Notes: generated by a model not told the origin, from the letters alone. Numbered from the stretch's first letter, positions 32,055 to 59,467 are shown. The stretch is 64,000 nucleotides of DNA from Spirochaetaceae bacterium (GCA_020353535.1 CP070696.1:1821989-1885988), one strand, 5' to 3'. A program made the numbers and translations.

Positions 32055-33239
32055 ATGAAAGCTACAAAAAAGGTACTGGCAGTCTTGGTTGTGTTGCTGC
32101 TCGCCACCACCCTGGCTTTTGCCGGCGCTAAGGGCGAGACAGAGAGCAAACCCGAGACCAAGACGCTCAAGGCGGGCTTCGTTTACGTCGGTCCGATCGG
32201 GGACATGGGCTGGTCCCACGCCCACGACGTCGGGCGCAAGTACGTCGAGGACAAGCTGGAGTGGCTGGAGACGGTGTATGTGGAATCCGTACCCGAGGGG
32301 GATGCGGCTCGCATCATCGACAGACTGGTCGTGGAGGAGAATTGCGACGTGGTCTTTACCACCAGTTTTGGCTATATGGATGATACGGTTGCCGCCGGTG
32401 CCAAATATCCAGACCAGCTGTTCATGCACTGTTCCGGCTTCAAGAACTCGGAGAATGTGGGTACCTATTTCGCGGAACTGTACCAGATGTACTATCTAAA
32501 TGGCCTGATGGCCGGTGCCCTGACAAAGAGCAACAAGGTCGGCTATGTGGGGGCCTTCCCCATCCCCGAGGTGGTGCGCCATATCAACGCCTACGCCCTG
32601 GGCGTGAAAGACGCGAATCCGGACGCACGGGTGCACGTGCGCTGGATCTTCTCCTGGTACGATCCAGCCAAAGCCCGCGAAGCCGCCGAAGCCCTGGTGG
32701 CCGACGGCATCGACTGCCTTGCCTTCACAGAGGACTCATCGGCGGTGATCGAGGTGGGTCAGGAGCATATGGAGAGGGGAAAGACGGTCTACAGCTTCAG
32801 CCACTACAGCCCGATGGAAGCCTTTGGACCGGATTCCGCGGTCTCCGGCCAGCTGGTCGACTGGGGCGTGATGTACGAGAAGATACTCATGGACATCTAC
32901 AACGGCACCTGGAGCAAGGAGGATCTCTGGTGGCTGGCCAAGGAGAAGGCGGCGCTGCTCGGCGGCAGCCTGGATCATGAGATCAATCCCAAGTTCGTCG
33001 ATGATCTGAAAGCCGTGTCCATCTCGACCCCGGATCTGGGGACGCTGAGTGCCTATGATCTGGTCATGAAGCGCTACGAACAGATGAAGCAGGGTAGGGA
33101 TGTCTTCGATCCGTTTGTCGGACCGATATCCGACAACAAGGGAACGGTGAGGATTGCTGACGGGGTTATGGGCAGCAAGGGTGAGCTGCTCAGCATCGAC
33201 TACTACGTGGACAATGTGGTGGGGGACGTGCCCAAATAA
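32055..33239 (+). CDS. BMP-family (PnrA/Med-like) ABC substrate-binding protein, probably nucleoside-binding
   Basis: Signal peptide plus GFVYVGPIGDMGWSHAHD and the rest of the basic-membrane-protein fold. No cognate permease or ATPase genes are adjacent. Confidence 0.85.
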   Translation: MKATKKVLAVLVVLLLATTLAFAGAKGETESKPETKTLKAGFVYVGPIGDMGWSHAHDVGRKYVEDKLEWLETVYVESVPEGDAARIIDRLVVEENCDVVFTTSFGYMDDTVAAGAKYPDQLFMHCSGFKNSENVGTYFAELYQMYYLNGLMAGALTKSNKVGYVGAFPIPEVVRHINAYALGVKDANPDARVHVRWIFSWYDPAKAREAAEALVADGIDCLAFTEDSSAVIEVGQEHMERGKTVYSFSHYSPMEAFGPDSAVSGQLVDWGVMYEKILMDIYNGTWSKEDLWWLAKEKAALLGGSLDHEINPKFVDDLKAVSISTPDLGTLSAYDLVMKRYEQMKQGRDVFDPFVGPISDNKGTVRIADGVMGSKGELLSIDYYVDNVVGDVPK

Positions 33240-33265
33240 GCGTGCGGATCAATTATTCTTGCTAT

Positions 33266-33308
33266 AACGGGGAGCGCGGCCGCTGATCGGCAAGCTCCCC
33301 GTTTTTTT
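33266..33308 (+). terminator. Rho-independent terminator
   Basis: AACGGGGAGC (33266-33275) pairs with GCTCCCCGTT (33294-33303), followed by a T7 run. Confidence 0.75.
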
Positions 33309-33409
33309 GTTCTAGAGAACTGTCATGAGGAGTAAAAAAAACGGGATATATCGGAAATACTACTGTAGAATAGACGACATAACTGGAAAATAGAAACTCG
33401 TTATAAGTG

Positions 33410-33467
33410 GAAAAATCGAGATTTTCAGAAAACACGAGATAGCCAATGCAGAAATTCATACTATAAT
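33410..33467 (+). promoter_or_regulatory. Tandem 13-bp direct repeats plus a -10 box (activator-dependent promoter candidate)
   Basis: GAAAAATCGAGAT (33410-33422), 5 nt, GAAAACACGAGAT (33428-33440), 21 nt, TATAAT (33462-33467). There is no good -35 box. The same architecture recurs at 37551-37609. Confidence 0.5.
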
Positions 33468-33494
33468 GACCGCAGTCCAGCAGGAGAAATATTC

Positions 33495-35057
33495 ATGTCC
33501 GGATTAAGGATAAGAGCAATATACGGTCTACTCATCTTGATCTTTTGTTATCCTCAGAACGTATTTGCGATAGGTCGAGCGGAAGAAACGGCGGAATTAG
33601 TGACCGAAGAGGGAACGCCCGGGCTGCCCCTGGTTCAGGAACGGGTCACCTTGGATTATTTCATGGCCAATCACAAAACCGCGCCCTTTACAGCACAGGA
33701 TCTGACCATCGCCGAGTTGCAGAGAAGAACCAACGTCTTCTTCAATATCATCAGCATCGACTCCGGATATTGGGATAAGTACAAGGTCATGCTGGCATCC
33801 AACGATCTGCCCGATCTCATCTTTACCAACGTGGCGGATGCCAAGCGATATGGGATGGAAGGTCTTTTTCTGCCCCTCGACGAGCTTCTAGAAAAACATG
33901 GGAAAAACATACTGGCTGCGATCGAACAGGAGGGGATTGCTGAAGACATGCGGGCTCTTGATGGCAGGATCTACTTTTTCCCAAAGATATCCTTGCAGCA
34001 ACCCGAACCCTTCATGATCCGTCAGGATTGGCTGGATGCCTGTGGGCTGGATACCCCGGAAACCCTGGAAGATTTGTACCATATGCTGAAGACCTTCAAA
34101 GAGCGTGATCCCGCCGGCGGAGGGCAGACCATCCCTTACGGATCCCTGATGTACAACGATCCTTCGATCTGCTATTTAAATGCCTTCTATCGGGCCTTTA
34201 CCGTCGACCAGGATTTCATGCTCAAAGCAGAGAGGATGGTCTGGGGTCCGGCTCAGCCCGAGATGAAGCAGGCCATGAGGTATCTGAACAGGCTCTACGC
34301 AGAGGGGTTGCTGGATCCGGAAGCCCCGATCCTGGCGAAAAAGCAGTGGGAGGAGAGGGTGTCAGCAGGGCGGGTGGGGATGATCGTCTACTCGTCTGTA
34401 CGAACCGACTACTTCACCCGGGTTCTCAGGCAGACCGATCCTGAAGCCAAGATGATCGGAATGCCGCCACCCATCGGCATCGACGGGCAGAGACACGTGG
34501 CGCCTATGCCTCGATTCAGCACGGATTTTTGCATGGTTGTCTCCAAGGATTCACCACATGCCGAGCTGATCGTGAAGTTCTTCGATTACGTGTTTAGCCC
34601 CGAGGGGAGAATGATCGTCTCCTACGGTGTGGAAGGGGATTCCTATGAGATCCGGGATGGCAAACCCGTATTCAGCGAAAAAATGTACAGCAAAGAGGCG
34701 GGCTGGAACATGTTTGTAAAGGCTGCAATAGGCGGCAGGAGGATCGCCTGCTGGCCCTACGATGATGCTATGGTGCAGCAATTGAGGGGCACTCTATCCC
34801 TCGAGGCACTCCAACTCACCTGGCCCCATGTCGATCCACCGACACCGATTCTCAATTTCGATCAGCAGGAGCTCGGCATCATCGAAACCAGGTATCAGGA
34901 TCTCAAAGACAGGACCAGTGAGTTCCTGCTCAAATTCCTTACGGGCGAGCTTTCCGTGGACGCCGGCTGGGATGACTATATAGGGGAACTGAAGCGAGCG
35001 GGCCTGGATGAGCTGGAGGAAGCCTACAACCGGGCCTATGCCAGGCGATATCGTTAG
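33495..35057 (+). CDS. Large (about 520 aa) extracellular solute-binding protein, CUT1/LplA-like
   Basis: Signal peptide and family-1 SBP-like sequence throughout. Orphan (no permeases), immediately upstream of the membrane AraC-type regulator. Confidence 0.8.
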   Translation: MSGLRIRAIYGLLILIFCYPQNVFAIGRAEETAELVTEEGTPGLPLVQERVTLDYFMANHKTAPFTAQDLTIAELQRRTNVFFNIISIDSGYWDKYKVMLASNDLPDLIFTNVADAKRYGMEGLFLPLDELLEKHGKNILAAIEQEGIAEDMRALDGRIYFFPKISLQQPEPFMIRQDWLDACGLDTPETLEDLYHMLKTFKERDPAGGGQTIPYGSLMYNDPSICYLNAFYRAFTVDQDFMLKAERMVWGPAQPEMKQAMRYLNRLYAEGLLDPEAPILAKKQWEERVSAGRVGMIVYSSVRTDYFTRVLRQTDPEAKMIGMPPPIGIDGQRHVAPMPRFSTDFCMVVSKDSPHAELIVKFFDYVFSPEGRMIVSYGVEGDSYEIRDGKPVFSEKMYSKEAGWNMFVKAAIGGRRIACWPYDDAMVQQLRGTLSLEALQLTWPHVDPPTPILNFDQQELGIIETRYQDLKDRTSEFLLKFLTGELSVDAGWDDYIGELKRAGLDELEEAYNRAYARRYR

Positions 35058-35079
35058 CTTACCGATCGTCTTCGAAAGC

Positions 35080-35107
35080 TTGAATCCTCCTCGAGATACC
35101 TTATAAT
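35080..35107 (+). promoter_or_regulatory. Near-consensus sigma70 promoter for the AraC-type regulator gene
   Basis: TTGAAT (35080-35085), a 16-nt spacer, then TATAAT (35102-35107). Confidence 0.5.
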
Positions 35108-35150
35108 TATTCTACATTAGAAAATAACTCATATTGCTGCCTTGCCTGAA

Positions 35151-37463
35151 ATGAAAGAGCGTCTGGTCGGTCGCAACAGCCAATTCAAGAGAAGTGTATT
35201 TCTTAGGATATTTTTCTCTCTGATGAGCCTTACTCTTATACCGATCTTTATTCTTGCGTTGACCTCCTACTTCGTGTTTTACCGATCCATGAAAACTCAA
35301 AGCGACGATTTCGATCGGCTGATATTGAGTACGCTTTCGGAGAAGATCGATCGAGAATTGGAGGAAATTAAGGAGATACTGTTCCGATATTCCCTGTTCA
35401 TGGACATCGACCAGGAGAACTATGGACGACTTTTAGGTGTTGTCAGGGAGTTGGGCGGGATTGCCGGCACCAACGACTTTGTTGAAGACATCTTTATATA
35501 CATTATCGATTCCGGGCAGGTACTGACTCAAAACGGGCTCTATTACGCGGATGTTTTTTTCGACAAGGTGTACAGGTATGCTGGTCGAACCGGATTGATG
35601 TTCCAGCAAAGATTACATGAACAGAATAACTTCTATATTTTGAGCACCACGGAGGTGATTCAAGATTCGTTCATCAACAATCGCTATCTCACCATAATGA
35701 ACTCTGTGCCTCTCAGAGAAGATCCCCGAGCGAATCTGGTTGTTCTTGTGGATGAAGCTTCTCTGCATGCCCCTTTTCATGCCACCGGTTTGGCCTCAAG
35801 AGCCGATCAGATCGCCATAGTCAATACTTCCTTGGAGTTGATCGCTGGATCAATCGATGAGACTCTGGATCAAGGCGTGTTGAGGGAACTGCTGGCAGAA
35901 ACAGAAACAGAGAAACTGTCCGCAGCTCACGGTGATCGCCTTGGGAGCAGCTACGTATTCCATTCCCGCTCATCGGTAACCGATTGGCATTACCTGGTGT
36001 TCACACCAGTAAATCAAATCACCAAACAGGCGGCTTCCATCCGTAATATTACGATTTGGATATGTGCTGTATTAGTAATTGTCAGCTTTCTGCTGACTTG
36101 GATAATTTCCATGAATCTATACAGTCCGATCAGGGAAATTGTTGCGACCATACGGAATTCACCGGTCTCAGAGCAAGAACGGGCAGTAAAGACTGATGAG
36201 ATGAGTTACATCCTGAACCATGTCAAGTATGTAATGGAACGAAACAAGAGTCTGGATGCCGGTATGAAGCAGGTCGAGCCGGCCTTTCGAGACCATTACC
36301 TGCGCTCGCTAATCCTCGGTATTCCGAATAGGATGATCAGCGATAGTGATACCGGTGTAAAACTGGATTGGCCCCATGCCAATTTTGCCGTACTAGTGGT
36401 CCAGATTTCATTCTTGGGGGACACCGTTCCTCCAGAATATTCTCGTGAATCCATGACAGATGATGTCTTACGCTATCTCGAGGAGGTCCTGAATAGCGCG
36501 GAGGGAATGGTGGGGGTGATAACCTATATCGGTAAGTCTCAGATGACCATTTTAGTGAATCTGGATACCGAACAAACCCTGGGCGTCCTATTGCGGGAAG
36601 TCGAATCCCAGATTAAACGATACTCGGAAAAGTACCGCTGTTCTATTGCCATGGGAATCGGCGGATTTTGTAGAACCATGTCGCAGATCAATGGATCATA
36701 CGAGGAAGCTCTGAAGGCTCTTCACGGGAGGATAATAGGAGCCAAATACCAGATCATTCATTTCAATAATATGGGGAAGGCACAAACATCAAAACCAAGG
36801 TTAAACTACCCGATCGAACGGGAACGACAGTTGATCTACAAGGTGCTTGCCGGGAACCATGAAAAAGTCGTGGAAGAGATCAACGGGATAATTGCCAATA
36901 ATCTTTTCGAAGAGATCACCTATAATCACCTAATATCCCTGTTTGATCAATTCATCGCGACGGCAGGTAAAGTCCTGAACAAAGACAAAAGTATCAAACT
37001 CGAATCGGAGGAAAAGGAGTTTCTGCATCACTACCGCTACAACAAACCCGAAAATCTAGCGGCTATGCGGAGGAGTGTGTTGGACATCTATGAACGAATC
37101 ACCGATGCCTTTTCCCAGAAAAAGAATACGAAAGGGGAGGGTTTGAAGGAAAAGCTGGTTCGTTACATCCAAGATAACTATCCTGCTCCCGATCTTTCTC
37201 TGGATAGAATAGCCGCCGAATTCGATCTGAATCCCAAATACGTGAGCAGATACTTCAAAGAGCAAACCGGTACCAACTACCTCGACTACCTGAACATGAT
37301 CAGAATCAAACAGGCCAAAGAGTTGTTGATGAAAAATGATAAACTGAAGATTCTGGAAATAAGCAAAATGGTGGGTTTCTACAACGTAAATACGTTTATT
37401 GCCGTCTTCAAGAGAATTGAAGGGGTAACACCAAACGCCTTTCGAAAGCTTTCGCGGGCGTAA
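35151..37463 (+). CDS. Membrane-anchored AraC/XylS-family transcriptional regulator with a large extracytoplasmic sensor region
   Basis: Two TM segments (residues about 20-45 and about 300-325 of the ORF) flank a periplasmic-type domain. C-terminal double HTH (IAAEFDLNPKYVSRYFKEQTG...ISKMVGFYNVNTFIAVFKR). No receiver domain. An upstream in-frame TTG at 35142 is possible. Confidence 0.8.
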   Translation: MKERLVGRNSQFKRSVFLRIFFSLMSLTLIPIFILALTSYFVFYRSMKTQSDDFDRLILSTLSEKIDRELEEIKEILFRYSLFMDIDQENYGRLLGVVRELGGIAGTNDFVEDIFIYIIDSGQVLTQNGLYYADVFFDKVYRYAGRTGLMFQQRLHEQNNFYILSTTEVIQDSFINNRYLTIMNSVPLREDPRANLVVLVDEASLHAPFHATGLASRADQIAIVNTSLELIAGSIDETLDQGVLRELLAETETEKLSAAHGDRLGSSYVFHSRSSVTDWHYLVFTPVNQITKQAASIRNITIWICAVLVIVSFLLTWIISMNLYSPIREIVATIRNSPVSEQERAVKTDEMSYILNHVKYVMERNKSLDAGMKQVEPAFRDHYLRSLILGIPNRMISDSDTGVKLDWPHANFAVLVVQISFLGDTVPPEYSRESMTDDVLRYLEEVLNSAEGMVGVITYIGKSQMTILVNLDTEQTLGVLLREVESQIKRYSEKYRCSIAMGIGGFCRTMSQINGSYEEALKALHGRIIGAKYQIIHFNNMGKAQTSKPRLNYPIERERQLIYKVLAGNHEKVVEEINGIIANNLFEEITYNHLISLFDQFIATAGKVLNKDKSIKLESEEKEFLHHYRYNKPENLAAMRRSVLDIYERITDAFSQKKNTKGEGLKEKLVRYIQDNYPAPDLSLDRIAAEFDLNPKYVSRYFKEQTGTNYLDYLNMIRIKQAKELLMKNDKLKILEISKMVGFYNVNTFIAVFKRIEGVTPNAFRKLSRA

Positions 37464-37550
37464 GGAACCTCGCCTGCGCTATCCCGCATACGCTTCGACG
37501 CCGTAGTAGAAAAACCAGGATAAATGGAAAACAGATCCCGCCTGCAGGTA

Positions 37551-37609
37551 GAAAAATCAAGATAAATTGAAAAATCACGATTCGTAAGTAGATTCATGCC
37601 TCCTAAAAT
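37551..37609 (+). promoter_or_regulatory. Tandem 13-bp direct repeats plus a -10 box (second copy of the 33410 architecture)
   Basis: GAAAAATCAAGAT (37551-37563), 5 nt, GAAAAATCACGAT (37569-37581), 22 nt, TAAAAT (37604-37609). Lies 30 nt upstream of the MBL gene start. Confidence 0.5.
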
Positions 37610-37639
37610 GAGTTTTACCGTATGTGATAGGAGGCAGGT

Positions 37640-38416
37640 ATGACAAGAATCTTTCTGGGCGCGATGGTGATCGTAACGGTGGCCGCATGTAGTCATAGAC
37701 CGACATCAGCGGTTTCTTTTCCAGAGGGAGAAAATCGAGTCATCACAGTGCCTCTGAGGAGTTCCAATGTCTTCTTTATTGAAGCAGAACAAGGCTATGT
37801 GATGGTCGATACGGGTATGGGTTCTAGTACAAACGCGGTGGAAGAGCTGTTCTCCAGTGCCGGAATCGAGCCGGCAGAAGTTACCCTGATTATTGTTACC
37901 CATGTGCACCCGGATCATGTTGGGGGACTGTTTTCCGCCAAAGAGCTGACTGGGGCGAGGGTGCTTTGCCACAAGAATGCTGCGAAGTTTATCGAGGAGG
38001 GGAGAAGTGAACCGATTGTCAGCCACAGCGCAATGGGTTCCATAATGGGTGCTATTACCCCCAAGAAGTTTAAGGGAGTTGTGCCGGATGTGTTAACGGA
38101 GGATGAGTTCGAGCTTCGGGACTACGGGTTGGCCGGTACGATTGTCCATTCTCCGGGTCATAGCTCAGGATCCATTACGATTAACCTGGATAATGGAGAA
38201 ACCCTGGTGGGTGATCAGGTGCGGGGGGAACTCGCAGATCTTTCTATAGGAAAGTTCTACGAGAATAAAGCGCTGCTAATCAAAGACCTCGAAACAGTGG
38301 CTCAGCACAATCCCCGGGTCATCTATATGTCTCACGGGACATACACCGATAACCAAACCCTCGCGGAGTTCATCGAGGAGCAGAGGCAATTGCTCGCCGC
38401 TGATGAGGCCTCTTGA
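37640..38416 (+). CDS. MBL-fold metallo-hydrolase, probable lipoprotein
   Basis: Lipobox-like VTVAAC. HxHxDH motif (THVHPDHVGG). Downstream His/Asp ligands (HSPGHS). Confidence 0.85.
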   Translation: MTRIFLGAMVIVTVAACSHRPTSAVSFPEGENRVITVPLRSSNVFFIEAEQGYVMVDTGMGSSTNAVEELFSSAGIEPAEVTLIIVTHVHPDHVGGLFSAKELTGARVLCHKNAAKFIEEGRSEPIVSHSAMGSIMGAITPKKFKGVVPDVLTEDEFELRDYGLAGTIVHSPGHSSGSITINLDNGETLVGDQVRGELADLSIGKFYENKALLIKDLETVAQHNPRVIYMSHGTYTDNQTLAEFIEEQRQLLAADEAS

Positions 38417-38487
38417 GGTGACAGGAAACGAGGGATCTGACCTTTTCAGGTAGAGAAGCCGAAGAGGGGCAGGGTAGAGGATAGACA

Positions 38488-40470
38488 TTGAGCACCGGAA
38501 GTCTTAGCGCCAAAGCCACATCGCTTCAATCAATAATCCGTCAAGAACTTGAAAACAAGATTTACCTCGCTCTCCAGCGCTACGCGAACGTGCATAGAGG
38601 TGCGGGTCAACATGCCCAAATCTCGACCCGGCTCTACGACAAAGCCAGAGAGGTTGTTCTGGACTATTTGGGTTTGGAGGGGAGAGAATACTGTGCGATA
38701 TTCGGTACCAGAAGAATGTTGTCTCGTCTGAATCGTTCCATTCTCTCAACCGAATCCGTATACCGGGTGTTCAGCAATGACCTGGGCTTGCCCCTGGGAA
38801 TCGGTGCCCTCGCATTTAGAAAGAGCTCTCTGCCCGTAGGAGTGCCGGATCAACGCGGCGGCGGAACAGTCAATCTGGTCTCGAGGAACCACGTGATCTG
38901 GAAAAATGCCCCGGAGAGGTTTGAAGCAGGCACACCGAACATAATCGGGGTGGTCATTCTGGCCGCAGCCCTGCAATTGATAAGAAGGTACGGTGATATC
39001 GATGTTTTCCGGCAAAAAGATGCCCCGAGTAGTGCAAGGTCGATACTGTACACCGGTGAAACAGATGGTGAGACGGGGCTTGAGCTCTTGGAGAAACTCA
39101 GGCTGAGTGCGATCGGCCGTGGTTCGGCTGTACCAACCTCTGCAGGTTTTCTGCCGTTTGTGAATTTCGACAGCGCCGCCAGCACACCGACTTTCCTGTC
39201 GGTTTGGAATACCGTTCGCCGGACATTGAGGCAGCCGCAGGTTCCGCTTCAAGAAATTTCGATAGAGGTCGAGAATCTATGCGCCGAGTTCTTTCAGGCA
39301 CCCCTGGATGAGTACGAGGTGCTGTTTATTTCCAACTCGACTGAGGGGATTAATATCGTTGCCGAGTCCTTGCGGCACTCTGGAGATACGAAGAATCGTA
39401 ACCGGACTACTGTACTGATTTCCGAAATGGAGCACAATTCAAATGAGCTCTCCTGGCGGTACGCCCCGGGGATATCGTTGTTGAGATTACCGGTAGACCA
39501 CGAGGGATTTATCTGTCTCCGGAAGCTGGAAGAGACTTTGTCGGCCTACAACCGGGAAGGTCGATTCGGCGGTCGGCGAATTCGGCTGGTAGCGGTCAGT
39601 GGATGTTCCAATGTGGTCGGGGCGATGAACGATCTAGAGAAAATCAGCGTAGTCGTTCACAGGTATGGAGCTTCCCTCCTGATCGACGCCGCCCAGCTGG
39701 CGGCGCATCGCAGAATCGATATGCAGGAGGCGGGCATCGATATCTTGGTGTGTTCCGGCCACAAGATGTACGCGCCCTTCGGAGCCGGCCTGCTGATTGT
39801 TCGAAAGGGGCTTTTGAATATTTCGGCTGGTGAGCTAAACAGCCTGCGGTCAACGGGTCTGGAGAACGCAGTGGGCATCGCCGCCCTGGGAAAGGCGATG
39901 GACTTGCTGTCGCGGGTCGGTATAGAAACGATTCGCGCAAGAGAGAAGGAACTGACGCGTCGGGCGATTGAGGGGCTCCACGGAATTCCCAGTGTTCAGA
40001 TCTACGGTGTGTCGGACATATTATCCGACAGATTTGAGAGCAGAGGACCGGTTCTGGCGTTTCGTTTAAAAAACGTGCATCACAATCTTGCCGCCAAGAT
40101 GCTTGCCGAGATCGGAGGAATAGGAGTGCGGAGCGGTTGTTTCTGCGCGCACCTGTTTGTCAAGCAGCTTATGGGGATAAGCAGCCTCCAATCCTTTGGC
40201 TCCAATGTAACGATGTTGCTCAGCCCGCATCGGATTGAACAGGCACTTCCCGGGATCGTGCGGGCCAGCTTCAGTTTCCTAAATACCGAAGATGAAATCG
40301 ACCATTTCCTTCGAATCCTCGGTCAGATCGCAGCGGCGCCGATGCCTTTCCTCAACCGCCTGTTTGCCCGCTCGTACTACGGTACTCCCCGGCTGCCGGT
40401 GACAGTCGAGCAGCAGCGAATCGAGGAAATGATTGCCAAAGTGGAGACAGAGATCTATGGCGCGCACTGA
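38488..40470 (+). CDS. Atypical class-V PLP-dependent enzyme (cysteine desulfurase/SufS-like) with a degenerate extra half-domain
   Basis: Complete class-V core (FDSAASTP, SNSTEGIN, SGHKMYAPFGAG PLP-lysine, VRSGCFCAH Cys loop). It is preceded by about 190 aa that repeat the HRG segment and the GGG...ERFEAGTPN segment but lack a PLP lysine. TTG start. Confidence 0.75.
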   Translation: MSTGSLSAKATSLQSIIRQELENKIYLALQRYANVHRGAGQHAQISTRLYDKAREVVLDYLGLEGREYCAIFGTRRMLSRLNRSILSTESVYRVFSNDLGLPLGIGALAFRKSSLPVGVPDQRGGGTVNLVSRNHVIWKNAPERFEAGTPNIIGVVILAAALQLIRRYGDIDVFRQKDAPSSARSILYTGETDGETGLELLEKLRLSAIGRGSAVPTSAGFLPFVNFDSAASTPTFLSVWNTVRRTLRQPQVPLQEISIEVENLCAEFFQAPLDEYEVLFISNSTEGINIVAESLRHSGDTKNRNRTTVLISEMEHNSNELSWRYAPGISLLRLPVDHEGFICLRKLEETLSAYNREGRFGGRRIRLVAVSGCSNVVGAMNDLEKISVVVHRYGASLLIDAAQLAAHRRIDMQEAGIDILVCSGHKMYAPFGAGLLIVRKGLLNISAGELNSLRSTGLENAVGIAALGKAMDLLSRVGIETIRAREKELTRRAIEGLHGIPSVQIYGVSDILSDRFESRGPVLAFRLKNVHHNLAAKMLAEIGGIGVRSGCFCAHLFVKQLMGISSLQSFGSNVTMLLSPHRIEQALPGIVRASFSFLNTEDEIDHFLRILGQIAAAPMPFLNRLFARSYYGTPRLPVTVEQQRIEEMIAKVETEIYGAH

Positions 40471-40951
40471 CCTGAAAAACACCCCGGTCCAGGCTTCAGA
40501 CCAACCCCGCGCCGCTGTCTCACCTCCCACGGTGTTTGTGGCTGCGATTGTTCTCGGTGTCGTTCTCGATTTGCTTGTACCCGTAGATCTGCTGCCCGGA
40601 GCAGCCCAGCTGAGTGCCGGACTACCGGTTATCGGATTTTCCGTGTTTCTTTCCGCCGTTTCATTTCGAAGCTTCGCGAAAAACGGCACAACCGCGGGTC
40701 ATAAAGAGAAACCGGTCGTGCTGATTACCAATGGACCCTTTGGATACACCCGCAATCCACTGTATCTCTCAGGCCTTCTGTTGGTACTTGGTTTCGGCTT
40801 TTTATTGGATAGCATCTGGATTTTTGCTCTAACAATCCCGGTGATGATCATCGTCCATTACGGTGCCGTCTTAAAGGAAGAGGATTATCTGCTGGATCAT
40901 TTTGGTAAGGAGTATGAGCAATACAAAACGTCGGTTAGGCGATGGATTTGA
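40457..40951 (+). CDS. ICMT/PEMT-family membrane methyltransferase
   Basis: Multi-TM protein with NPLYLSGLL and C-terminal EEDYLLDHFGKEYEQYKTSVRRWI, typical of isoprenylcysteine carboxyl / phospholipid methyltransferases. ATG at 40457 with GGAGA 9 nt upstream. Confidence 0.75.
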   Translation: MARTDLKNTPVQASDQPRAAVSPPTVFVAAIVLGVVLDLLVPVDLLPGAAQLSAGLPVIGFSVFLSAVSFRSFAKNGTTAGHKEKPVVLITNGPFGYTRNPLYLSGLLLVLGFGFLLDSIWIFALTIPVMIIVHYGAVLKEEDYLLDHFGKEYEQYKTSVRRWI

Positions 40952-42090
40952 CGGCGTCACCACTTCAGAAATCGAGGAGTACAATTATGTTGAACGCATC
41001 AACATCAACAACAGAGGACGTTGGCTTCGCCAAAATGTTGAGCAGCCTCTTGCGCATCTTTTTTTGGGATGCACTCAGGATCAGTATCAGGAATCCGGCT
41101 CGGGCTCTGTTTTTCCTGAGAACCGTGGGTCGGCAGAGAAAAGCCGCTGGCGTTCGATCAAGGTGGCGGAAGCAGGGCTTCCATATTCCTCCCATCGCTC
41201 TTTTTAGCGTCACTAATAAGTGCAATCTTCACTGCAAGGGGTGTTACTCCTGGGCGTTGCACAGGTCGAATGGCACGGAGCTCAGCACAGAGGAACTTGA
41301 CCGAGTCTTTGCGGAAGCGAAAGCTTTGGGAATTTTGTTCTTCGCCCTTGCCGGCGGCGAGCCCTTCGTACGCCCTGATATCATTGAAGTTACCAGCAGA
41401 TACCCAGAGATCATATTTCTTGTTTTCACAAACGGACTGCTCATCGATTCCGAGATGATTGGCAAGGTGAAGAAGCAGAAGAACATCATTCCGGTTATCA
41501 GCCTTGAGGGATACAAGGAGGATACGGACGGACGCAGAGGGGAAGGGGTTTTTCAGCATCTACAGAAAATCATAAATAGACTGAAGGCCAGCGATATTTT
41601 CTACAGTATATCCATCACCCTCACACGTTCGAATTTTACCACGGTGACGAATGACCAATTTATTAACAAGCTGGTTGATTTGGGCTGCAAGCTGCTTTTC
41701 CTGGTGGAGTACAGTCCGGTACAGGAAGGGACGGAAGATTGGGTAATCAGTGAGCAGCAGAGAGGGGAGTTAATGGGTTGTGTGAAATCCTTCCGCTCCA
41801 AGTATAAAAGTTTGTTTATTTCGATTCCCGGAGACGAAGAAGAAATCGGCGGCTGTCTCTCCGCAGGCCGGGGATTCGTGCATATCAGCGCCAGCGGGGA
41901 CGTGGAGCCCTGTCCGTTCGCACCCTACTCAGATGCCAACCTGCGGGATTCATCCTTGAAGGAGGCTCTGCAGTCCAAATTCTTGAGTACAATTCGCAAT
42001 AATCGCGACATGCTGTCCGAAGCCGAAGGAGGCTGTGCTCTATGGGTGAAACGGGATTGGATTCGATCCCTGCTCCATGAGCCTGAGTGA
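40942..42090 (+). CDS. Radical SAM enzyme, uncharacterised subfamily
   Basis: CNLHCKGCY (CxxxCxxC) cluster motif and GGEPF SAM-binding motif. C-terminal region has three further Cys (GGCLSAG, EPCPFAP, GGCALW) that could hold an auxiliary cluster. Confidence 0.85.
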   Translation: MDLTASPLQKSRSTIMLNASTSTTEDVGFAKMLSSLLRIFFWDALRISIRNPARALFFLRTVGRQRKAAGVRSRWRKQGFHIPPIALFSVTNKCNLHCKGCYSWALHRSNGTELSTEELDRVFAEAKALGILFFALAGGEPFVRPDIIEVTSRYPEIIFLVFTNGLLIDSEMIGKVKKQKNIIPVISLEGYKEDTDGRRGEGVFQHLQKIINRLKASDIFYSISITLTRSNFTTVTNDQFINKLVDLGCKLLFLVEYSPVQEGTEDWVISEQQRGELMGCVKSFRSKYKSLFISIPGDEEEIGGCLSAGRGFVHISASGDVEPCPFAPYSDANLRDSSLKEALQSKFLSTIRNNRDMLSEAEGGCALWVKRDWIRSLLHEPE

Positions 42091-42106
42091 CGGAGAGGAG
42101 TTTCCG

Positions 42107-42163
42107 ATGTTTGAACGTACGCGTTCGACGTCAAAATTATACGATTCAACCTTAACGTACTGA
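42107..42163 (+). CDS. 18-codon micro-ORF (MFERTRSTSKLYDSTLTY), hypothetical
   Basis: Not in the ORF track because it is too short. GGAGAGGAG lies 6 nt upstream of the ATG. Its stop codon overlaps the AGGAGG RBS of the next gene. There is no homology evidence. Confidence 0.25.
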   Translation: MFERTRSTSKLYDSTLTY

Positions 42164-42175
42164 GGAGGTACAAAA

Positions 42176-42463
42176 ATGGCGGACCGAGAGAAGAGGCAGG
42201 AATTGGCTGCCAAAATTGGCAAGGGAAAAGCGGATTTTATCCGGCATCTGATCACCTACCTGGTGGTTATTACCATCCTGGCGGTTATCAACAATGTCAC
42301 GGATTCGGGAGGGTACCAGTGGTGGCTGTGGCCCGCCGGCTGTTGGGGAGTATTCGTTGTAATCAACTTCCTGTCGGCCTTTGTTTTTAAAGCCGGCACC
42401 TTCAAACGATTGGAGGATCAGCTGGCCGAAAAAGAGCTGGAAAAGATGAACCGCGGGAATTGA
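42176..42463 (+). CDS. 2TM-domain membrane protein
   Basis: Charged N-terminus, two adjacent TM helices (FIRHLITYLVVITILAVIN / WWLWPAGCWGVFVVINFL) and a charged tail. Strong RBS. Confidence 0.65.
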   Translation: MADREKRQELAAKIGKGKADFIRHLITYLVVITILAVINNVTDSGGYQWWLWPAGCWGVFVVINFLSAFVFKAGTFKRLEDQLAEKELEKMNRGN

Positions 42464-42539
42464 ATCCAACTGATCGTTTCCACTGTAGGAGACCCGTCAT
42501 TCATATTGCACCCTTAGATCCTGGGAGGAGTGTGCAGCA

Positions 42540-43016
42540 ATGAAGCGAATCGATCTTGGCGACATCGGGAACATCGCCGAGGCTGTAGCCGCTATCGGCG
42601 TCATCGTCTCTCTGATCTATCTGGGCGTGCAGATCCAACAAAACACGAATGCCATTCGGGCTTCAAGCTATCAGAGTATTGCCGATGATATCACGGAATT
42701 CCAAATGGGATTGGCTCAAAACGGCGACCTGGCTCGTATTTACCTCGTAGGCCTTGAAAATCCGCAGCAATTGACCCCAATTGAAAAGGCGCAACTTGAC
42801 AACTACTTGGGAGTGCTCTTTGCCCGCTTCGATACGGCGGTGGAGCTGTACAATCGTGGCATGATCGATGACAGAGCCATGGCTCCGTACTCCAGGTTCA
42901 TCCTCTTTCAGCTCGAGTTTCCCGGAGTGGCTGCGTATTGGCAGGATGCCCAGATTTTTTTCAGCGACGGTCTTCGTGACCACATCGAGAGCATCAGGCG
43001 ATCGGGTCCGGAATGA
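42540..43016 (+). CDS. Hypothetical single-pass membrane protein
   Basis: N-terminal TM (AEAVAAIGVIVSLIYLGVQI) followed by a helical soluble region. No family recognised. Confidence 0.5.
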   Translation: MKRIDLGDIGNIAEAVAAIGVIVSLIYLGVQIQQNTNAIRASSYQSIADDITEFQMGLAQNGDLARIYLVGLENPQQLTPIEKAQLDNYLGVLFARFDTAVELYNRGMIDDRAMAPYSRFILFQLEFPGVAAYWQDAQIFFSDGLRDHIESIRRSGPE

Positions 43017-43737
43017 GGTGTCTCTTGTGCTACCAAAACGATGCTTCCCTGATAAAAGTCGCCGCGCTGCTGGCGGTATACGTGTTTTTCCTGCTTCTGC
43101 GTTCGAGGTTGGGTAGACCTATCACGAAAGGGATTGGCGCGTTCCTCTGGGGATTCCCGGGATGATCTATCTGTTGGGGCTTGTTCTGGCCGTTCCCATG
43201 GCCTATATCGATCCGGAAAGCTTACTCGGGATGAGAGCGTTCAACGGTTGGAATATGGTTTATTACCTCATCATTCTGTTCTTGGGATTCTTGATTTTCG
43301 CGGATGAGAGGATTCAGCAGGCCATCGTTAAACAGCGCTTTGTCTCCCTCATCCTCGGAATCGCCCTTCTGGTACTGCTCGACAGGGGACTTTTCATTAA
43401 AACTCAAACCCCATCGGTGGGTCCGGTGTTTCAGGAAACGATTGCTTCCTGGTGCTTCGTTCTGGCCATACTTGGACTTTGCATGAAGCACCTTACCGTT
43501 TCGGGCCGCTTTCTGAGTTATGCCACGGAGGCAGTCCTTCCTTTCTACATGCTGCATCAACCGATAATCTTGCTGACTGCCTTTTGGATCGTACAACTCC
43601 GGATCCCCATCCTGGTTAGGTATCTCATTATAGTGATCCTCTCCCTCGCCGGCATCATGCTTTTATACGAGGGCATCAGACGGGTCAGTGTGCTGCGCTT
43701 ATGCTTCGGCATGAAGGCGCGAAGGGGAAAATCATGA
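43013..43737 (+). pseudogene. Acyltransferase-3 family paralogue, 5'-truncated and frameshifted
   Basis: A 50-codon frame (43013-43165, ..FFLLLRSRLGRPITKGIGAFLWGFPG) and the 191-aa ORF (43162-43737) align consecutively to residues about 165-396 of the intact downstream paralogue (LLLFLRSEAGRSFVNKLAGICLRPGG / ...EAVLPFY..LYEG..). The frames switch at about 43160-43165. The N-terminal approx 165 aa is absent. Confidence 0.6.
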
Positions 43738-44891
43738 CGGAGCGAAGGTACGATATCGATTGGTTGAGAGTGATTGCCGTTTTGGCAGTCTTCCTGCTGC
43801 ACACATCCCAGTATTTCGATACCGAAGGCTGGATTCTAAAGAATGCCGAGCGGTCCTTCATCGTCAATGTGCTCAGGGGAGCTTTGCTCGATATGTGGGT
43901 CATGCCCCTTCTGTTCCTACTCTCCGGGGCAGCATCCTGGTATGCGCTTAAATCCAGGAACGCCGGGCAATATCTCCTTGATCGGGGCAAACGGCTTTTA
44001 ATCCCTCTGTACGGTGTTGGCCTTTTCATCCTCCTGCCGCCTCAAGCCTATATCGATTGGTCTGTCAACAGGGGCTACAGCGGTACTATTTGGGAACTGT
44101 TTCCGCGCTATCTGGGCAACCTGAGTTTAAACTTTAGAACCCCCTATTCAACGCTTCCCTATGCCGGGCATCTGTGGTTCCTCCAGCACCTGTTTATTAT
44201 CTCCCTGGTGATGCTGCCGCTGCTCCTTTTCCTTAGATCAGAAGCAGGCCGGAGTTTCGTCAACAAACTGGCCGGTATTTGCCTGCGCCCGGGGGGTGTC
44301 TTCCTGTTTTTGCTTCCCCTGATCGCGGTTCGTATCGCTTTCAAGCACTTCATGTTTGCGGGACCGAATTCTTGGGCGGATCTGTTCACCTACGCTGTTT
44401 TCTTTGTAATCGGCTATATCATCGCGGTAGACCCAAGCTATACCGATAGTATAAAGAAACATGGCTGGATAGGCCTGGCCCTGGGAATAGCCGGTTTCTC
44501 TGGTTTTGTTTTTTTGCTGAACGCCGGCTACAACCGTGACGCTGAGCCCTTTTCTCTGAAATATGTTCTTTTCCATATCGCAGAGATCGTCAGCATATTT
44601 GGCTGGATCGTGTTTATTTTCAGTATGGCAGCCAAACACCTCAACTTCAGAAGCAGAGTAATATCCTACGGAAACGAGGCGGTGCTGCCCTTCTACATAT
44701 TCCATCTTACGGTTGCCCACCTGGCTGCCTGGCTTGTCTTGTCCTGGAACCTGGGAATCGTGCCGAAATTCCTGATTATCACGGTGGTTTCCTTCATTCT
44801 GATCATAGCCCTGTACGAAGGATTCGTTCGGCATTTCAACGTCATGAGATTTATTTTCGGAATGAGGCCCAAGAAAAAGCGGATTGAATAA
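43734..44891 (+). CDS. Acyltransferase-3 family membrane O-acyltransferase
   Basis: ATG at 43734 (ATGA overlap). N-terminal YDIDWLRVIAVLAVFLLH motif and about 10 TM helices. Confidence 0.8.
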   Translation: MTERRYDIDWLRVIAVLAVFLLHTSQYFDTEGWILKNAERSFIVNVLRGALLDMWVMPLLFLLSGAASWYALKSRNAGQYLLDRGKRLLIPLYGVGLFILLPPQAYIDWSVNRGYSGTIWELFPRYLGNLSLNFRTPYSTLPYAGHLWFLQHLFIISLVMLPLLLFLRSEAGRSFVNKLAGICLRPGGVFLFLLPLIAVRIAFKHFMFAGPNSWADLFTYAVFFVIGYIIAVDPSYTDSIKKHGWIGLALGIAGFSGFVFLLNAGYNRDAEPFSLKYVLFHIAEIVSIFGWIVFIFSMAAKHLNFRSRVISYGNEAVLPFYIFHLTVAHLAAWLVLSWNLGIVPKFLIITVVSFILIIALYEGFVRHFNVMRFIFGMRPKKKRIE

Positions 44892-45143: not shown

Positions 45144-47096
45144 GTGTTCGATGTTCTCGTTGTCGATAACCATCCGCTGATTCGCGAGTATCTCTCGGCC
45201 CTGCTTGGAAAAGAAGGGTACACCGTGCTCACCGCGAAAGATGGACTGGCCGCAATCGATGTGCTTCGCAGGTCGAATCCCAAAGTGATCTTCGTCGACC
45301 TGGTTATGCCAAATATCGACGGACAGACCTTCTGCCGCATCCTTCGCCGAATGCCGAAACATAAATCATGTTTCCTGGTTGTTCTGTCGGCGACGGCGGC
45401 AGAGAGCACGATTCCCGTAAAAGACATCGATGCCAATGCCTATATTGCAAAGGGACCATTTAAAAAGATGGGCGGGCATATACTCGATGTTCTGGAGTTG
45501 GCACAGAAGAGCGATTTCAAGGCCGTGGAAACCGAAGTCCGAGGATTGGATGACATCCACGCACGGGAGATTACCAAGGAACTGCTCCTGTTGAAGAGGC
45601 ATTTCGAAGTGGTCCTGGCCAGCATGAACGAAGGGATACTGGAAATCAACAAGGACGGCAGAATCGTGTACGCCAACGGAGCTGCCATCGAGATTACGGA
45701 AATAGTCGAGGAGCGGCTGCTTGCCTCGAGGTTTCTCGATTTATTCGACCAAGAGATGCGTGAGGACGTTGCCTCGTATCTGGAGGAGATTTCTGCCAAG
45801 AGGGACGAGCGGTCCTCGGCTGGTATCGAGATTCGGCTTGGAAACAGGGAATTGGAGCTGCGGGTCTATCCGATTCGTGAGAATGGAGAAAAATCGATCG
45901 TCCTGCTCGTGGATATCACGGAAAGAAAGCGTTTTGAGGGTCAGCTGCGGCGTTCCCAGCGTCTTGAATCGATCGGTACTCTGGCGGCCGGGGTCGCCCA
46001 TGATTTCAACAATCTGCTGACGGTCATCCAGGGGAATACTGACATCATGACCATGAATCTCGAGCAGACCCATCCCCATTACGAGCGGCTTCAAGAGATC
46101 CTCCGCCAGGTGAAAAGTGCCAAGCGACTGACGGGGCAGCTGCTCGGTTATGCCCGCAAGGGGAGGTTCGAGGTTCGTTTGCTGGATCTCAACCAGCTGA
46201 TTCGAGAAACTGCGGAGACCTTCGGCCGGACCCGCAAGGAAATCTCGATAAATGTGCAGTTGGATCCCGGACTTGAGGTATTTGAGGGAGACGCCGGCCA
46301 GATCGAACAGATGGTTCTGAATCTTCTGCTTAATGCGGGGGATGCGATGCCAGGTCAGGGTAGCCTGGATATCCAAACCCAGAACGTCAATCACGCTGAA
46401 ATCTCAAGCGATATCTTTACTCCGAAAGCGGGGAAATACGTAATGATTGCGGTTCATGACACCGGCATTGGAATGGATCGTGAGACAAGGGAGCGCATTT
46501 TCGAGCCGTTTTTCACCACCAAGGAGATGGGGCGCGGCACCGGCCTGGGTCTTGCCTCTGTGTACGGGGCCGTCAAGGGACACGGAGGATACATCGATGT
46601 GGAATCCGAGATCGGGAAGGGAACCACCTTCCGCATCTATCTTCCAGTAAAACGCTCCTCAGGTGTGCAGGAAACGATAGAACAGCAGGAGCAGACCTAC
46701 AGCTCTCCCGAACCGTCGGCCCACGGCACGGTTCTCCTCGTCGACGATGAACCGGCTGTATGCAAGGTAGCTACGGAAATCCTGCACAAACTACATTTCA
46801 GCGTGCTGGCTAGCGAAAGCGGTACAGAGGCTCTGCGCGTGTTTCGGGAGAATCGCGAAGCGATCGTGCTGGTGATTCTTGACATCGTCATGCCAGGCAT
46901 GGGAGGGAGCCAGGTCTTTCACGAGCTCCGTGCTCTCGATCCGGAGGTGAAGATCCTTCTGTGCAGCGGATATAGCATCCAGGGTGAAGCCGAACGTCTG
47001 CTCGGTATGGGTGCCAACGGTTTTATCCAAAAGCCCTTCAGCCTGCATGGTCTGGAGAAGAGCATCAGCGATATTTTGGAACCCGGGGGGCAATAA
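45144..47096 (+). CDS. Hybrid histidine kinase REC-PAS-HisKA-HATPase-REC
   Basis: N-terminal receiver (VLVVDNHP...FVDLVMPNIDG), PAS, His[13 protein letters not shown], HATPase (NLLLNAGDAM, DTGIGM, GRGTGLGLA), and a C-terminal receiver (VLLVDDEP...ILDIVMPGMGG...KP). GTG start with AGAGG RBS. Confidence 0.85.
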   Translation: MFDVLVVDNHPLIREYLSALLGKEGYTVLTAKDGLAAIDVLRRSNPKVIFVDLVMPNIDGQTFCRILRRMPKHKSCFLVVLSATAAESTIPVKDIDANAYIAKGPFKKMGGHILDVLELAQKSDFKAVETEVRGLDDIHAREITKELLLLKRHFEVVLASMNEGILEINKDGRIVYANGAAIEITEIVEERLLASRFLDLFDQEMREDVASYLEEISAKRDERSSAGIEIRLGNRELELRVYPIRENGEKSIVLLVDITERKRFEGQLRRSQRLESIGTLAAGVAHDFNNLLTVIQGNTDIMTMNLEQTHPHYERLQEILRQVKSAKRLTGQLLGYARKGRFEVRLLDLNQLIRETAETFGRTRKEISINVQLDPGLEVFEGDAGQIEQMVLNLLLNAGDAMPGQGSLDIQTQNVNHAEISSDIFTPKAGKYVMIAVHDTGIGMDRETRERIFEPFFTTKEMGRGTGLGLASVYGAVKGHGGYIDVESEIGKGTTFRIYLPVKRSSGVQETIEQQEQTYSSPEPSAHGTVLLVDDEPAVCKVATEILHKLHFSVLASESGTEALRVFRENREAIVLVILDIVMPGMGGSQVFHELRALDPEVKILLCSGYSIQGEAERLLGMGANGFIQKPFSLHGLEKSISDILEPGGQ

Positions 47097-56756: not shown

Positions 56757-58256
56757 ATGACGATCCTCATTGCCGATGATGAAAAACTTGTCCGTTACAC
56801 CTTGAAGAGTATGCTCAAAGAAATCGGCATACCCTCCTCATCAATACAGGTAGCCTGTGATGGACAAGAGATGGTCGAAAAGGTAGCCGACATTCGGCCG
56901 GACCTTGCCCTGGTAGATATCAAGATGCCCCGGTTAGACGGTTTGGAAGCGATTCAGAGAGCAAGGGGACTATCACCCCACACCAGGTGGATAATTCTTA
57001 CGAGCTACTCGACGTTCGAATACGCAAAGCAAGCCGTGGCTCTGGGTGCGACAGCGTATCTATTGAAACCGGTTAGTCCGCAGGAGCTTCGCCAGACGAT
57101 ACAGCAGGTCACCCAAGCAAACAGGGGAATCTATCAGCGCTTGAACGATGAGTTCGAGGCTCATCTGAACGCGCTTCTGCAGGAAACCACGACTCTTGCA
57201 CATGAAGGGCTCGATTATTTTACCGATGCTGTATTGTGGGGATCCCTGCTGGTATTTGACAGCAACATAGACAGGAAGGACCTTGTCCAGCAAGAGCATC
57301 TAGCCTGTGATTATATCCGAAAAAAAATGGCTAGTGTTATCGATCAGACTACCCGCATCGCCCTTTGCAGGTTAGGCGACGGGCAGTTGGCACTGATCGG
57401 AGCCTGGACCCGCGGACAGGGCGAACGGAAATCCCGCGGAGCGATTCGTGACCTGTTACGCAAACTGCAGCTCTCTCTCAACTCGATGGCGCCGCCCTCG
57501 GTATGCTGTACCATAATTTTAGGTGAACGATCCGACAGCTACGCAGCCTTCGACGAACATCTGCGCCTGCTGACCGAGATTGCCCCTCTCCGCACTATCA
57601 CCGGTATAGGTGGCGCGATCCCTTGGATCGCCCTTCAAGAGCGACGAGGATTTCATCCCGAAGTCGAGCTTAGCAAGTATCTGATTGCTCTGTCGGCGAC
57701 TGTTCGCGAAAGCACATACCTGGAGTATCTCAAGCTCGTCGATGAAATTGCCGTGGTATGGAAGGGGATGAGGGATAGCCGCCGAACGGAAATCAAGGAC
57801 CAAGTATTACGGTTTCTTGAGATTTCTCTGGGATTCCGACCCACCCCCTTGCCGTATGAGGATGCTTGGTCCGAGGAGCTACGGTGTCATGGCAAGCAAC
57901 TTTTTGAAAACACCGCTGCTCGAAAATCAAAGGATAATATTGACCAGGTGGTAGAATTCATAGACAGGAACTACATGAAGGATATTGGGGTTGCTCAGAT
58001 TGCCAACGACCTGGGGTTAACGCCGAACTACCTCAGTCATCGTTTCCACAAAAAAACCGGAACCACCTTTGTTAAATACCTGACCCAACTACGGATAACC
58101 AAGGCCAAGGAACTGCTGGCTGATCCTTTGCTGCCGATCCAGCAGATAGCTCGAAAAGTCGGGTATAACAGCTCTCGTCATTTCAGCTCCATGTTCAAGC
58201 TTTTGGAAGGAAGGATCCCTTCGGATTTTCGCAGAGACCGGGAGAGAAACGATTGA
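56757..58256 (+). CDS. YesN-type response regulator with AraC-family HTH output
   Basis: Receiver (ILIADDEKLVR...LVDIKMPRLDG...KP) and a C-terminal AraC double HTH (IANDLGLTPNYLSHRFHKKTG...IARKVGYNSSRHFSSMFK). Confidence 0.9.
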   Translation: MTILIADDEKLVRYTLKSMLKEIGIPSSSIQVACDGQEMVEKVADIRPDLALVDIKMPRLDGLEAIQRARGLSPHTRWIILTSYSTFEYAKQAVALGATAYLLKPVSPQELRQTIQQVTQANRGIYQRLNDEFEAHLNALLQETTTLAHEGLDYFTDAVLWGSLLVFDSNIDRKDLVQQEHLACDYIRKKMASVIDQTTRIALCRLGDGQLALIGAWTRGQGERKSRGAIRDLLRKLQLSLNSMAPPSVCCTIILGERSDSYAAFDEHLRLLTEIAPLRTITGIGGAIPWIALQERRGFHPEVELSKYLIALSATVRESTYLEYLKLVDEIAVVWKGMRDSRRTEIKDQVLRFLEISLGFRPTPLPYEDAWSEELRCHGKQLFENTAARKSKDNIDQVVEFIDRNYMKDIGVAQIANDLGLTPNYLSHRFHKKTGTTFVKYLTQLRITKAKELLADPLLPIQQIARKVGYNSSRHFSSMFKLLEGRIPSDFRRDRERND

Positions 58257-59450: not shown

Positions 59451-59467
59451 AAAGGAAGCTCGTCGAC

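Follow-up and report, generated by a model that had tools for sequence, protein, structure and literature searches.

What controls the genes on either side of a membrane-anchored AraC-family regulator that is itself encoded between two copies of the same promoter architecture? The question is raised by a 64-kb window of the Spirochaetaceae bacterium genome (GCA_020353535.1 CP070696.1:1821989-1885988; the window is the whole stretch analysed, and coordinates are counted from its first letter). An initial annotation of this window had described one pair of 13-mers upstream of a gene for an extracellular solute-binding protein (SBP) and a second pair upstream of an operon that begins with a metallo-beta-lactamase (MBL)-fold hydrolase gene, and had named the AraC-family protein, here termed REG, as the only regulator encoded between the two sites; the gene content bears this out, as the SBP and REG genes alone lie between them. 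We conclude, with a probability of roughly two in three (about 0.68), that both intergenic regions are activator-dependent sigma-70 promoters under a four-box REG operator, which would place the SBP gene in one regulon with the 37640-44891 operon.

Two promoters in the window share a four-box array

Direct reading of the sequence agrees with the initial annotation on the four 13-mers, on their 18-bp period at both promoters and on the positions of the -10 hexamers. The SBP promoter reads GAAAAATCGAGAT (33410-33422), TTTCA, GAAAACACGAGAT (33428-33440), 21 nt and TATAAT (33462-33467), and the promoter of the MBL-hydrolase operon reads GAAAAATCAAGAT (37551-37563), AAATT, GAAAAATCACGAT (37569-37581), 22 nt and TAAAAT (37604-37609). 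The degenerate consensus GAAAAMWCRMGAT has exactly four perfect matches in the window, all of them these promoter 13-mers; with one mismatch allowed there are six matches against 1.34 expected, a count that no shuffle of the window reached. The pair had been said to occur nowhere else in the window, and consensus, simple weight-matrix and nhmmer profile searches indeed find only these two sites there. Two lone 13-mer-like matches on the minus strand, at 49517 and 61503, are taken as chance occurrences, as neither has a partner and the second falls within an open reading frame (ORF).

The two-repeat layout of the initial annotation is correct, but it covers only the proximal half of a larger array. 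Each promoter carries four GAAAA-type boxes, R1 to R4 (primed at the downstream promoter), at offsets 0/18/42/60, beginning at 33368/33386/33410/33428 and at 37509/37527/37551/37569; all are on the plus strand, and the whole array spans 33368-33440 and 37509-37581. With up to two mismatches allowed, the pattern GAAAA-N13-GAAAA-N19-GAAAA-N13-GAAAA is confined in the window to 33368-33432 and 37509-37573, and none of 100 shuffles contains it. Boxes R1, R3 and R4 share the consensus GAAAAnWCRnGAT, and GTA or GTG directly precedes R1 and R3. R2 is half-degenerate: it retains GGAAAA and a C-rich patch further 3', and its 3' half differs. An RNA element is an unlikely explanation for these repeats, as the boxes precede the -10; nothing relevant came up when 33200-37700 was scanned against Rfam. 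As a separate observation, a weak additional R1/R2-like pair (AAAAAAACGGGAT...GGAAATA; nhmmer E 2.2) lies at 33335-33358, 33 bp 5' of the SBP array, and is not seen in orthologues.

The array is conserved across metagenomic loci

Orthologues of REG (52-78% identity) were found in metagenomes only; neither the protein nor an alignment recovered any from the collection of species-representative genomes. The lineage is probably spirochaetal, as the best named match (81%) of a protein encoded nearby is to a Spirochaetia metagenome-assembled genome. We built an nhmmer profile from 10 orthologous metagenomic promoters, leaving out both window promoters; it matches the window at 37506-37606 (E 4.5e-18) and 33365-33467 (E 5.3e-15), with the next match at E 0.79. 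In all, 15 distinct promoters align essentially gap-free. Their mean pairwise identity is 0.69-0.79 in R1, R3 and R4, 0.60 in R2 and 0.77 in the -10; for upstream flank, promoter spacer and leader it is only 0.30-0.39. Within R1, R3 and R4, positions 1-3 and 5 are conserved at at least 98%, position 4 at 82%, C8 at 93%, R9 at 96%, G11 at 82%, A12 at 96% and T13 at 93%. Because an independently built profile finds only the two window sites, and because the boxes are conserved against near-random flanks, the array has the look of a conserved functional element. The initial annotation had proposed to check conservation of the repeats in orthologous loci; they are conserved there, and in most of these loci they accompany REG.

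These alignments also bear on an explanation that needs no dedicated regulator, in which the array is a duplicated promoter cassette or an A-tract/UP-element-like strengthener. The GAAAA tracts at about -46 and -58 do lie where UP elements act, and the whole unit of about 105 bp stands before different genes, as a mobile promoter would. However, conservation is box-specific (G1, C8, R9, G11, A12, T13) with random spacers, in genomes whose REG proteins are 52-78% identical, and the two window copies have separate closer orthologues: the SBP copy groups with L005, L051 and L048a (loci are designated by L numbers), and the MBL copy with L006. Since each copy has its own closer orthologues, the two are old and separately maintained, and we regard an origin without a dedicated regulator as very improbable.

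Linkage of the array to REG, SBP and other genes

The array lies directly 3' of REG in L002-L004, L006-L012 and L017-L019, and the gene that follows it is variable. The order is REG-array-radical-SAM in L002-L004, REG-array-SBP in L008-L011 and L018, REG-array-DUF4389-SBP in L012 and L019, and Bmp-SBP-REG-array-2TM (2TM, a protein with two transmembrane segments) in L006, L007 and L017. In L005 and L051 it is the opposite flank of REG that carries the array, in front of the SBP gene, and the SBP-array is divergent from the REG operon. The SBP gene adjoins REG in the window, L006-L012 and L017-L019, and lies 2.7 kb from it in L051; the REG/SBP loci examined yielded no BPD_transp_1 permease gene. 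Across genomes, the genes behind the array encode SBP, radical-SAM and 2TM proteins, homologues of the 158-residue product of ORF158, Acyl_transf_3 proteins and a kinase/regulator operon. Because the same conserved array precedes SBP, radical-SAM, 2TM, ORF158-homologue and acyltransferase genes in different genomes, we assign them to one putative regulon, in line with the initial annotation's proposal that the SBP gene and the downstream operon are regulated together.

Three further loci, fetched via their SBP genes, suggest a different candidate for the protein that reads the array. L050 has the order GT4-Bmp-array-SBP, in synteny with the window, and carries a MalT/LAL-type regulator gene where the window has REG. 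L048 and L049 each have two complete four-box arrays back to back in one intergenic region (L048:2494-2806, L049:5661-5973), one before an SBP-LAL gene pair and the other before an operon encoding a HisKA_3 kinase, a NarL-type regulator and a REC protein, followed in L049 by four Acyl_transf_3 genes. The MalT/LAL-type regulator (AAA_16, WHD_MalT, TPR, GerE) begins 7 bp after the SBP gene at L048:4403-5785, L050:7576-8913, L051:6925-9660, L012:8103-10739 and L019:9974-12612, and the SBP-LAL pair is also present in L049. The array might then be the operator of another factor, one with a GerE/LuxR-type helix-turn-helix (HTH), either this regulator, co-transcribed with SBP, or the NarL-type response regulator of the HisKA_3 operon, with REG a mere neighbour or target. 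The absence of REG from the L048 and L049 sequence examined, the substitution in L050 and the SBP-LAL pairs of L051, L012 and L019 all speak for this. Yet tblastn finds no LAL homologue in the window, and none follows the SBP gene in L010, L011 or L018, where the array persists beside REG; Firmicutes loci of the same geometry, described below, have a REG homologue and lack a GerE-type gene; and same-orientation 13-mers that abut the -35 are an arrangement typical for AraC-type proteins, whereas GerE-type dimers for the most part bind inverted repeats, MalT being an exception. Taken together, we consider it unlikely that a GerE-type factor is the cognate regulator, and favor REG.

We also searched all representative genomes for the strict pattern GTRGAAAAA-N4-GAT-N5-GAAAA-N5-GAT, which gave 12 matches, none of them beside a REG homologue. 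These appear to be chance or coding matches, several being in seemingly coding regions and one being a recurring stretch in L041-L045, and this motif-to-regulator test is uninformative.

The array abuts predicted sigma-70 promoters

Both promoters had been described as lacking a good -35 box, with the proximal repeat occupying that region. The hexamers are indeed weak (TAGCCA, 4/6; TTCGTA, 3/6), but a -35-like element does exist, and R4 abuts it: the two share one T, with which R4 ends and the hexamer starts, and the hexamer lies 16-17 nt before the predicted -10 in the window, in orthologues and in Paenibacillus homologues. In orthologues the hexamer is often TTTACA, TATACA or TAGACA, with up to five of six consensus positions (TTTACA, TAGACA), and the -10 is kept across the 15 promoters. 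If the start is set about 7 nt after the -10, R4 would extend from about -46 to -34, and the midpoints of the other boxes would fall near -58, -82 and -100. Both predicted promoters are compatible with the ribosome-binding sites and with short leaders of about 21-24 nt. The initial annotation had likened this layout to the classic class-II arrangement of AraC/XylS activators, and direct repeats that touch the -35 do fit that arrangement. AraC and XylS sites have a 21-bp period, however, and the period here is 18 bp.

The boxes are placed shortly before a conserved -10, which is where activator sites are found, and tandem repeats upstream of promoter elements have been reported as activator sites for AraC-family regulators of carbohydrate loci (PMC8579813). 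From this we infer activation, of a class-II-like kind. REG could instead bind the boxes and mainly repress, or be dual, for example if an unliganded oligomer bridging the pairs, 42 bp apart, held the promoter off. A separation of four helical turns would permit such bridging, and the consensus TATAAT of the SBP promoter, together with -35-like hexamers that match at 5/6 with a 16-nt spacer in several orthologues, would make for a fairly strong promoter. Every box is nevertheless located 5' of the -35, which leaves the spacer, the -10 and the start region free; the -35 hexamers in the window score only 3-4 of 6, and AraC-type proteins that bind upstream of promoter elements generally activate (PMC8579813). 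We therefore hold a mainly repressing or dual role of REG to be highly unlikely, and activation by REG remains our preferred reading.

REG is a predicted membrane-tethered AraC-family protein

The C-terminal residues 690-769 of REG form an AraC-type DNA-binding domain in Pfam (HTH_18, E 1.3e-18; HTH_AraC, E 2.8e-12), and partial NCBIfam matches are to the DNA-binding regions of RhaS, AraC and MelR. Two hydrophobic segments, TM1 (about residues 15-45) and TM2 (about 297-322), flank a long N-terminal region, and a GGDEF_2-like domain lies between TM2 and the C-terminal HTH_18. Because of these two segments and a positively charged N-terminus (5 K/R among the first 16 residues), residues 46-296 should be periplasmic and the C-terminal 450 residues, including the DNA-binding domain, cytoplasmic. 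The periplasmic domain is probably dCache-like: Foldseek searches with domains of the REG model return dCache sensors for the periplasmic part, and the DNA-binding domains of AraT, YesN and AraC for the C-terminal part, with AraT and YesN closest. Pfam detects no HisKA/His_kinase, HATPase or receiver domain in REG. Related response regulators do exist, as protein P0023 combines REC, GGDEF_2 and HTH_18.

The promoter of REG itself had been placed at 35080-35107 and called near-consensus and constitutive-type; it reads TTGAAT-16-TATAAT and is kept upstream of orthologues as TTGCAT or TTGCAA, 16-17 nt and TATAAT. Its spacer keeps a (C/G)AGAT(A) block, equal to the 3' half of the 13-mer, about 16-20 nt before the -10 in the window and in L002-L014, and the block persists in orthologues of 60-65% identity; it could be an autoregulatory half-site. 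No terminator-like structure was found between the SBP gene and REG, nor between REG and the array that follows it.

Elsewhere in the window, a YesM-like kinase gene (54766-56754) lies upstream of a YesN-type response-regulator gene (56757-58256). A derivation of REG as a fusion of a YesM sensor with a YesN output is not established: BLASTP of REG against this kinase gives no significant match, and against the YesN-like protein only residues 588-770 match. Between the YesN-type gene and a CUT2 ABC transporter operon (58362-62983) there is a single copy of GTAGAAAAAAGTACAT (58269-58284), which starts GTAGAAAAA like boxes R1 and R3.

The geometry recurs beside distant Firmicutes homologues

The window SBP is an LplA/LipO-type (CUT1) extracellular solute-binding protein without adjacent permease genes, and its closest named homologues are from Paenibacillus, where they are encoded in permease-permease-SBP operons. 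Such operons adjoin genes for proteins of 759-765 residues that are 31-32% identical to REG over about 755 residues (P. cremeus, P. agaridevorans); these proteins, and one from the Clostridiaceae metagenome-assembled genome L028 (29% identity), have the same Pfam architecture as REG. More broadly, the family with two transmembrane segments around a sensor, followed by GGDEF_2 and HTH_18, is common beside LplA-type SBPs in Paenibacillus and Clostridia.

The box geometry is found at these loci upstream of CUT1 permease operons, with no MalT-like/GerE-type gene nearby. In P. cremeus, the intergenic region between regulator and transporter contains GAAATAACGAGAT-5-GAAAAAACGTGAT and a second pair 55 bp away, and the pair occurs in 0 of 200 shuffles. 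In L028, the region 3' of the regulator reads GTAGAAAAACAAAGAT, 26 nt, GTAGAAAAACATGCAT, AATTA, GAAAATGAAAGAT abutting TTACAA, with TATACA following as a -10-like hexamer. The four-box layout is the same and stands before two permease genes, and GTAGAAAAA-N33-GTAGAAAAA...GAT with TTACAA directly after it was matched in 0 of 200 shuffles. Members of the P. agaridevorans group have another box (GAAWTTGAAT; GAATTTGAAT, GAAATTGAAT) with the same 18-bp period, the same GTA prefix and the same one-base overlap, here with TTGAAT-17-TATGAT. The case for operators at the Firmicutes loci is built on pattern and shuffle tests and on position. It suggests that the geometry follows the regulator family whereas the box sequence changes with the regulator, as would be expected if the family's own DNA-binding domain reads the boxes, and we regard it as supportive rather than decisive. 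The window clade departs from these homologues in having an SBP gene without adjacent permeases and other target genes.

Features of the locus and its neighbourhood

Coordinates of the arrays, promoters and genes are collected in Table 1.

Table 1. Arrays, predicted promoters and genes at the REG locus (window coordinates)
Feature	Coordinates	Strand	Remarks
Box R1, SBP promoter	33368-33380	+	GAATAGACGACAT; GTA before; gap-free alignment with R1 of 14 other promoters
Box R2, SBP promoter	33386-33398	+	GAAAATAGAAACT; half-degenerate
Box R3, SBP promoter	33410-33422	+	GAAAAATCGAGAT; distal 13-mer of the initial annotation
Box R4, SBP promoter	33428-33440	+	GAAAACACGAGAT; proximal 13-mer of the initial annotation
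Predicted sigma-70 promoter, SBP gene	33440-33467	+	TAGCCA (4/6), 16 nt, TATAAT
SBP gene	33495-35057	+	520 aa; Pfam SBP_bac_1 and SBP_bac_8; homologues; N-terminal signal sequence
Promoter of REG	35080-35107	+	TTGAAT-16-TATAAT
REG	35151-37463	+	770 aa; start probably ATG 35151 (orthologue lengths and alignment); ORF opens at TTG 35142
Box R1', downstream promoter	37509-37521	+	GAAAAACCAGGAT; GTA before
Box R2', downstream promoter	37527-37539	+	GAAAACAGATCCC; half-degenerate
Box R3', downstream promoter	37551-37563	+	GAAAAATCAAGAT
Box R4', downstream promoter	37569-37581	+	GAAAAATCACGAT
Predicted promoter, downstream operon	37581-37609	+	TTCGTA (3/6), 17 nt, TAAAAT
Putative target operon	37640-44891	+	eight genes; continuity inferred from short gaps only
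Exported MBL-fold hydrolase	37640-38416	+	
SufS-like aminotransferase class V	38488-40470	+	long N-terminal extension
PEMT/ICMT-like methyltransferase	40433-40951	+	
Radical-SAM/SPASM enzyme	40942-42090	+	
2TM protein	42176-42463	+	
ORF158	42540-43016	+	158 aa
Acyl_transf_3 remnant	43162-43737	+	
Acyl_transf_3	43701-44891	+	

Three observations concern the downstream operon and its surroundings. The SufS-like cysteine desulfurase homologue has an N-terminal extension of about 240 residues and scores 194 bits, below the cut-off of 800, against encapsulin cargo desulfurases. The first of the two Acyl_transf_3 genes encodes 191 residues that match the C-terminal half of the family only (profile positions 166-325) and overlaps the start of its full-length paralogue; it is possibly the leftover of a duplicated acyltransferase gene. 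A hybrid histidine kinase gene (PAS, HisKA, HATPase, receiver; 45144-47096) lies 3' of the operon, is 78% identical to a gene at an equivalent position in L004 (L004:4929-6863), and may be part of the same conserved neighbourhood.

Discussion

The window thus presents two copies of a conserved array on either side of REG, in a family of loci in which array and regulator mostly travel together, and we propose the following mechanism. The operator would be about 75 bp long and consist of two box pairs, with an 18-bp period within each pair and 42 bp, or four helical turns, between pairs. The C-terminal double-HTH domain of REG would bind the boxes, one monomer per 13-mer, contacting GAAAA and GAT about 9 bp apart, as the MarA/Rob paradigm would predict for a single AraC-type monomer with its two recognition helices. 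REG bound at about -40 and -58, with the upstream pair near -82 and -100, would then activate transcription in a class-II-like manner. REG itself would be made from its own conserved constitutive-type promoter, and its periplasmic, probably dCache-like domain would take the signal; the orphan LplA-type SBP under REG control may share in this. Because no terminator-like structure separates the SBP gene from REG, induction of the SBP promoter should also raise REG by read-through, a positive feedback, and REG transcription may in turn read into the downstream operon.

The idea of SBP as a co-sensor arises because it has no permease partner at these loci and yet is the most constant member of the regulon. 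It is speculation by analogy with CuaDSR and AraPST, discussed below, here without kinase or receiver. More tentatively still, and with rather less than even odds, we can imagine REG and the orphan SBP as a phosphorelay-free, two-protein transmembrane device, in which loaded SBP, or the ligand, acts on the periplasmic domain and membrane-tethered REG occupies the four-box operator. The geometry (18-bp period, one base shared with the -35) would then be a family-wide code, shared by an apparently uncharacterised family of such regulators in Firmicutes and by the probably spirochaetal window clade, and the window-clade module would have been rewired from sugar uptake to envelope-/cofactor-modifying genes and further regulators (LAL, histidine kinase/response regulator).

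Several points weigh against activation of both promoters by REG. The -35-like hexamers, which match at 3-5 of 6 positions, could together with a near-perfect -10 give substantial basal activity, and a period of 18 bp does not amount to a whole number of helical turns, in contrast to the 21 bp of AraC/XylS repeats. In L006, L007 and L017, the SBP gene upstream of REG has no array and instead a promoter-like TTGTAG-17-TACTAT (L006:3236-3528), so that SBP autoregulation is not universal. L048, L049 and L050 have the array but no REG gene within the 8-10 kb examined, and the SBP gene is there followed by the MalT/LAL-type regulator. At the Firmicutes loci, matches to the promoter profile in nhmmer are not significant (L028, E 0.26; L020, E 2.5). 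Finally, the AlphaFold model of REG has low confidence (pLDDT 60), and its domain-level Foldseek matches are indicative only.

In its layout, the array is of an already known AraC-family type, and it refines rather than overturns existing knowledge. As with AraC at I1-I2 of araBAD and XylS at Pm, there is a C-terminal double-HTH domain, a set of same-orientation repeats, a proximal site that touches the -35 and an imperfect -35; the differences are the 18-bp rather than 21-bp period and the presence of four boxes as two pairs 42 bp apart. REG, moreover, is an integral membrane protein that carries a periplasmic sensor, whereas those regulators are soluble and their ligand domain is a cupin. 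In Caldicellulosiruptor, HemR and PecR2 (PMC8579813) are likewise local AraC-family regulators beside SBP/ABC operons, with tandem repeats upstream of promoter elements, and are predicted activators; the N-terminus of HemR resembles that of the REG family. Their box sequence differs, and the window clade has an orphan SBP and envelope-/cofactor-type genes but no permease genes at the locus; the HemR and PecR2 sites, too, are predictions only.

CuaDSR of R. cellulolyticum (PMC10384115) and AraPST of Geobacillus (6swi) similarly link a dedicated extracellular SBP to a membrane sensor and an AraC-type output. They do so through a YesM-type kinase and a YesN/AraC response regulator, whereas REG is sensor and output in one polypeptide, with no phosphorelay possible; because REG contains no kinase or receiver, the locus is not a three-component system. 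ToxR and CadC share with REG a membrane-tethered DNA-binding domain and a periplasmic sensing part. Theirs is an N-terminal OmpR-type winged helix with one transmembrane segment, and REG has a C-terminal AraC domain and two segments; because both the type of DNA-binding domain and the topology differ, REG is not ToxR-like. ChiS of Vibrio cholerae, a DNA-binding membrane sensor, is another likeness to membrane-tethered REG, and ChiS is controlled by a periplasmic binding protein. The literature searched yielded no characterised membrane-anchored AraC regulator coupled to an SBP and no experimental study of the REG family, which is not proof of absence.

For this family, the array offers a concrete putative operator, specified by sequence, by the spacing of its boxes and by where it stands with respect to the promoter, for membrane-anchored regulators that would couple a periplasmic sensor directly to DNA binding, without kinase or receiver. 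In an uncultured, probably spirochaetal lineage, it would join genes of unrelated annotation in one regulon, namely an orphan SBP, an MBL hydrolase, a SufS-like enzyme, a methyltransferase, a radical-SAM/SPASM enzyme, a 2TM protein and acyltransferases, and the promoter profile could be used to list this regulon in complete genomes.

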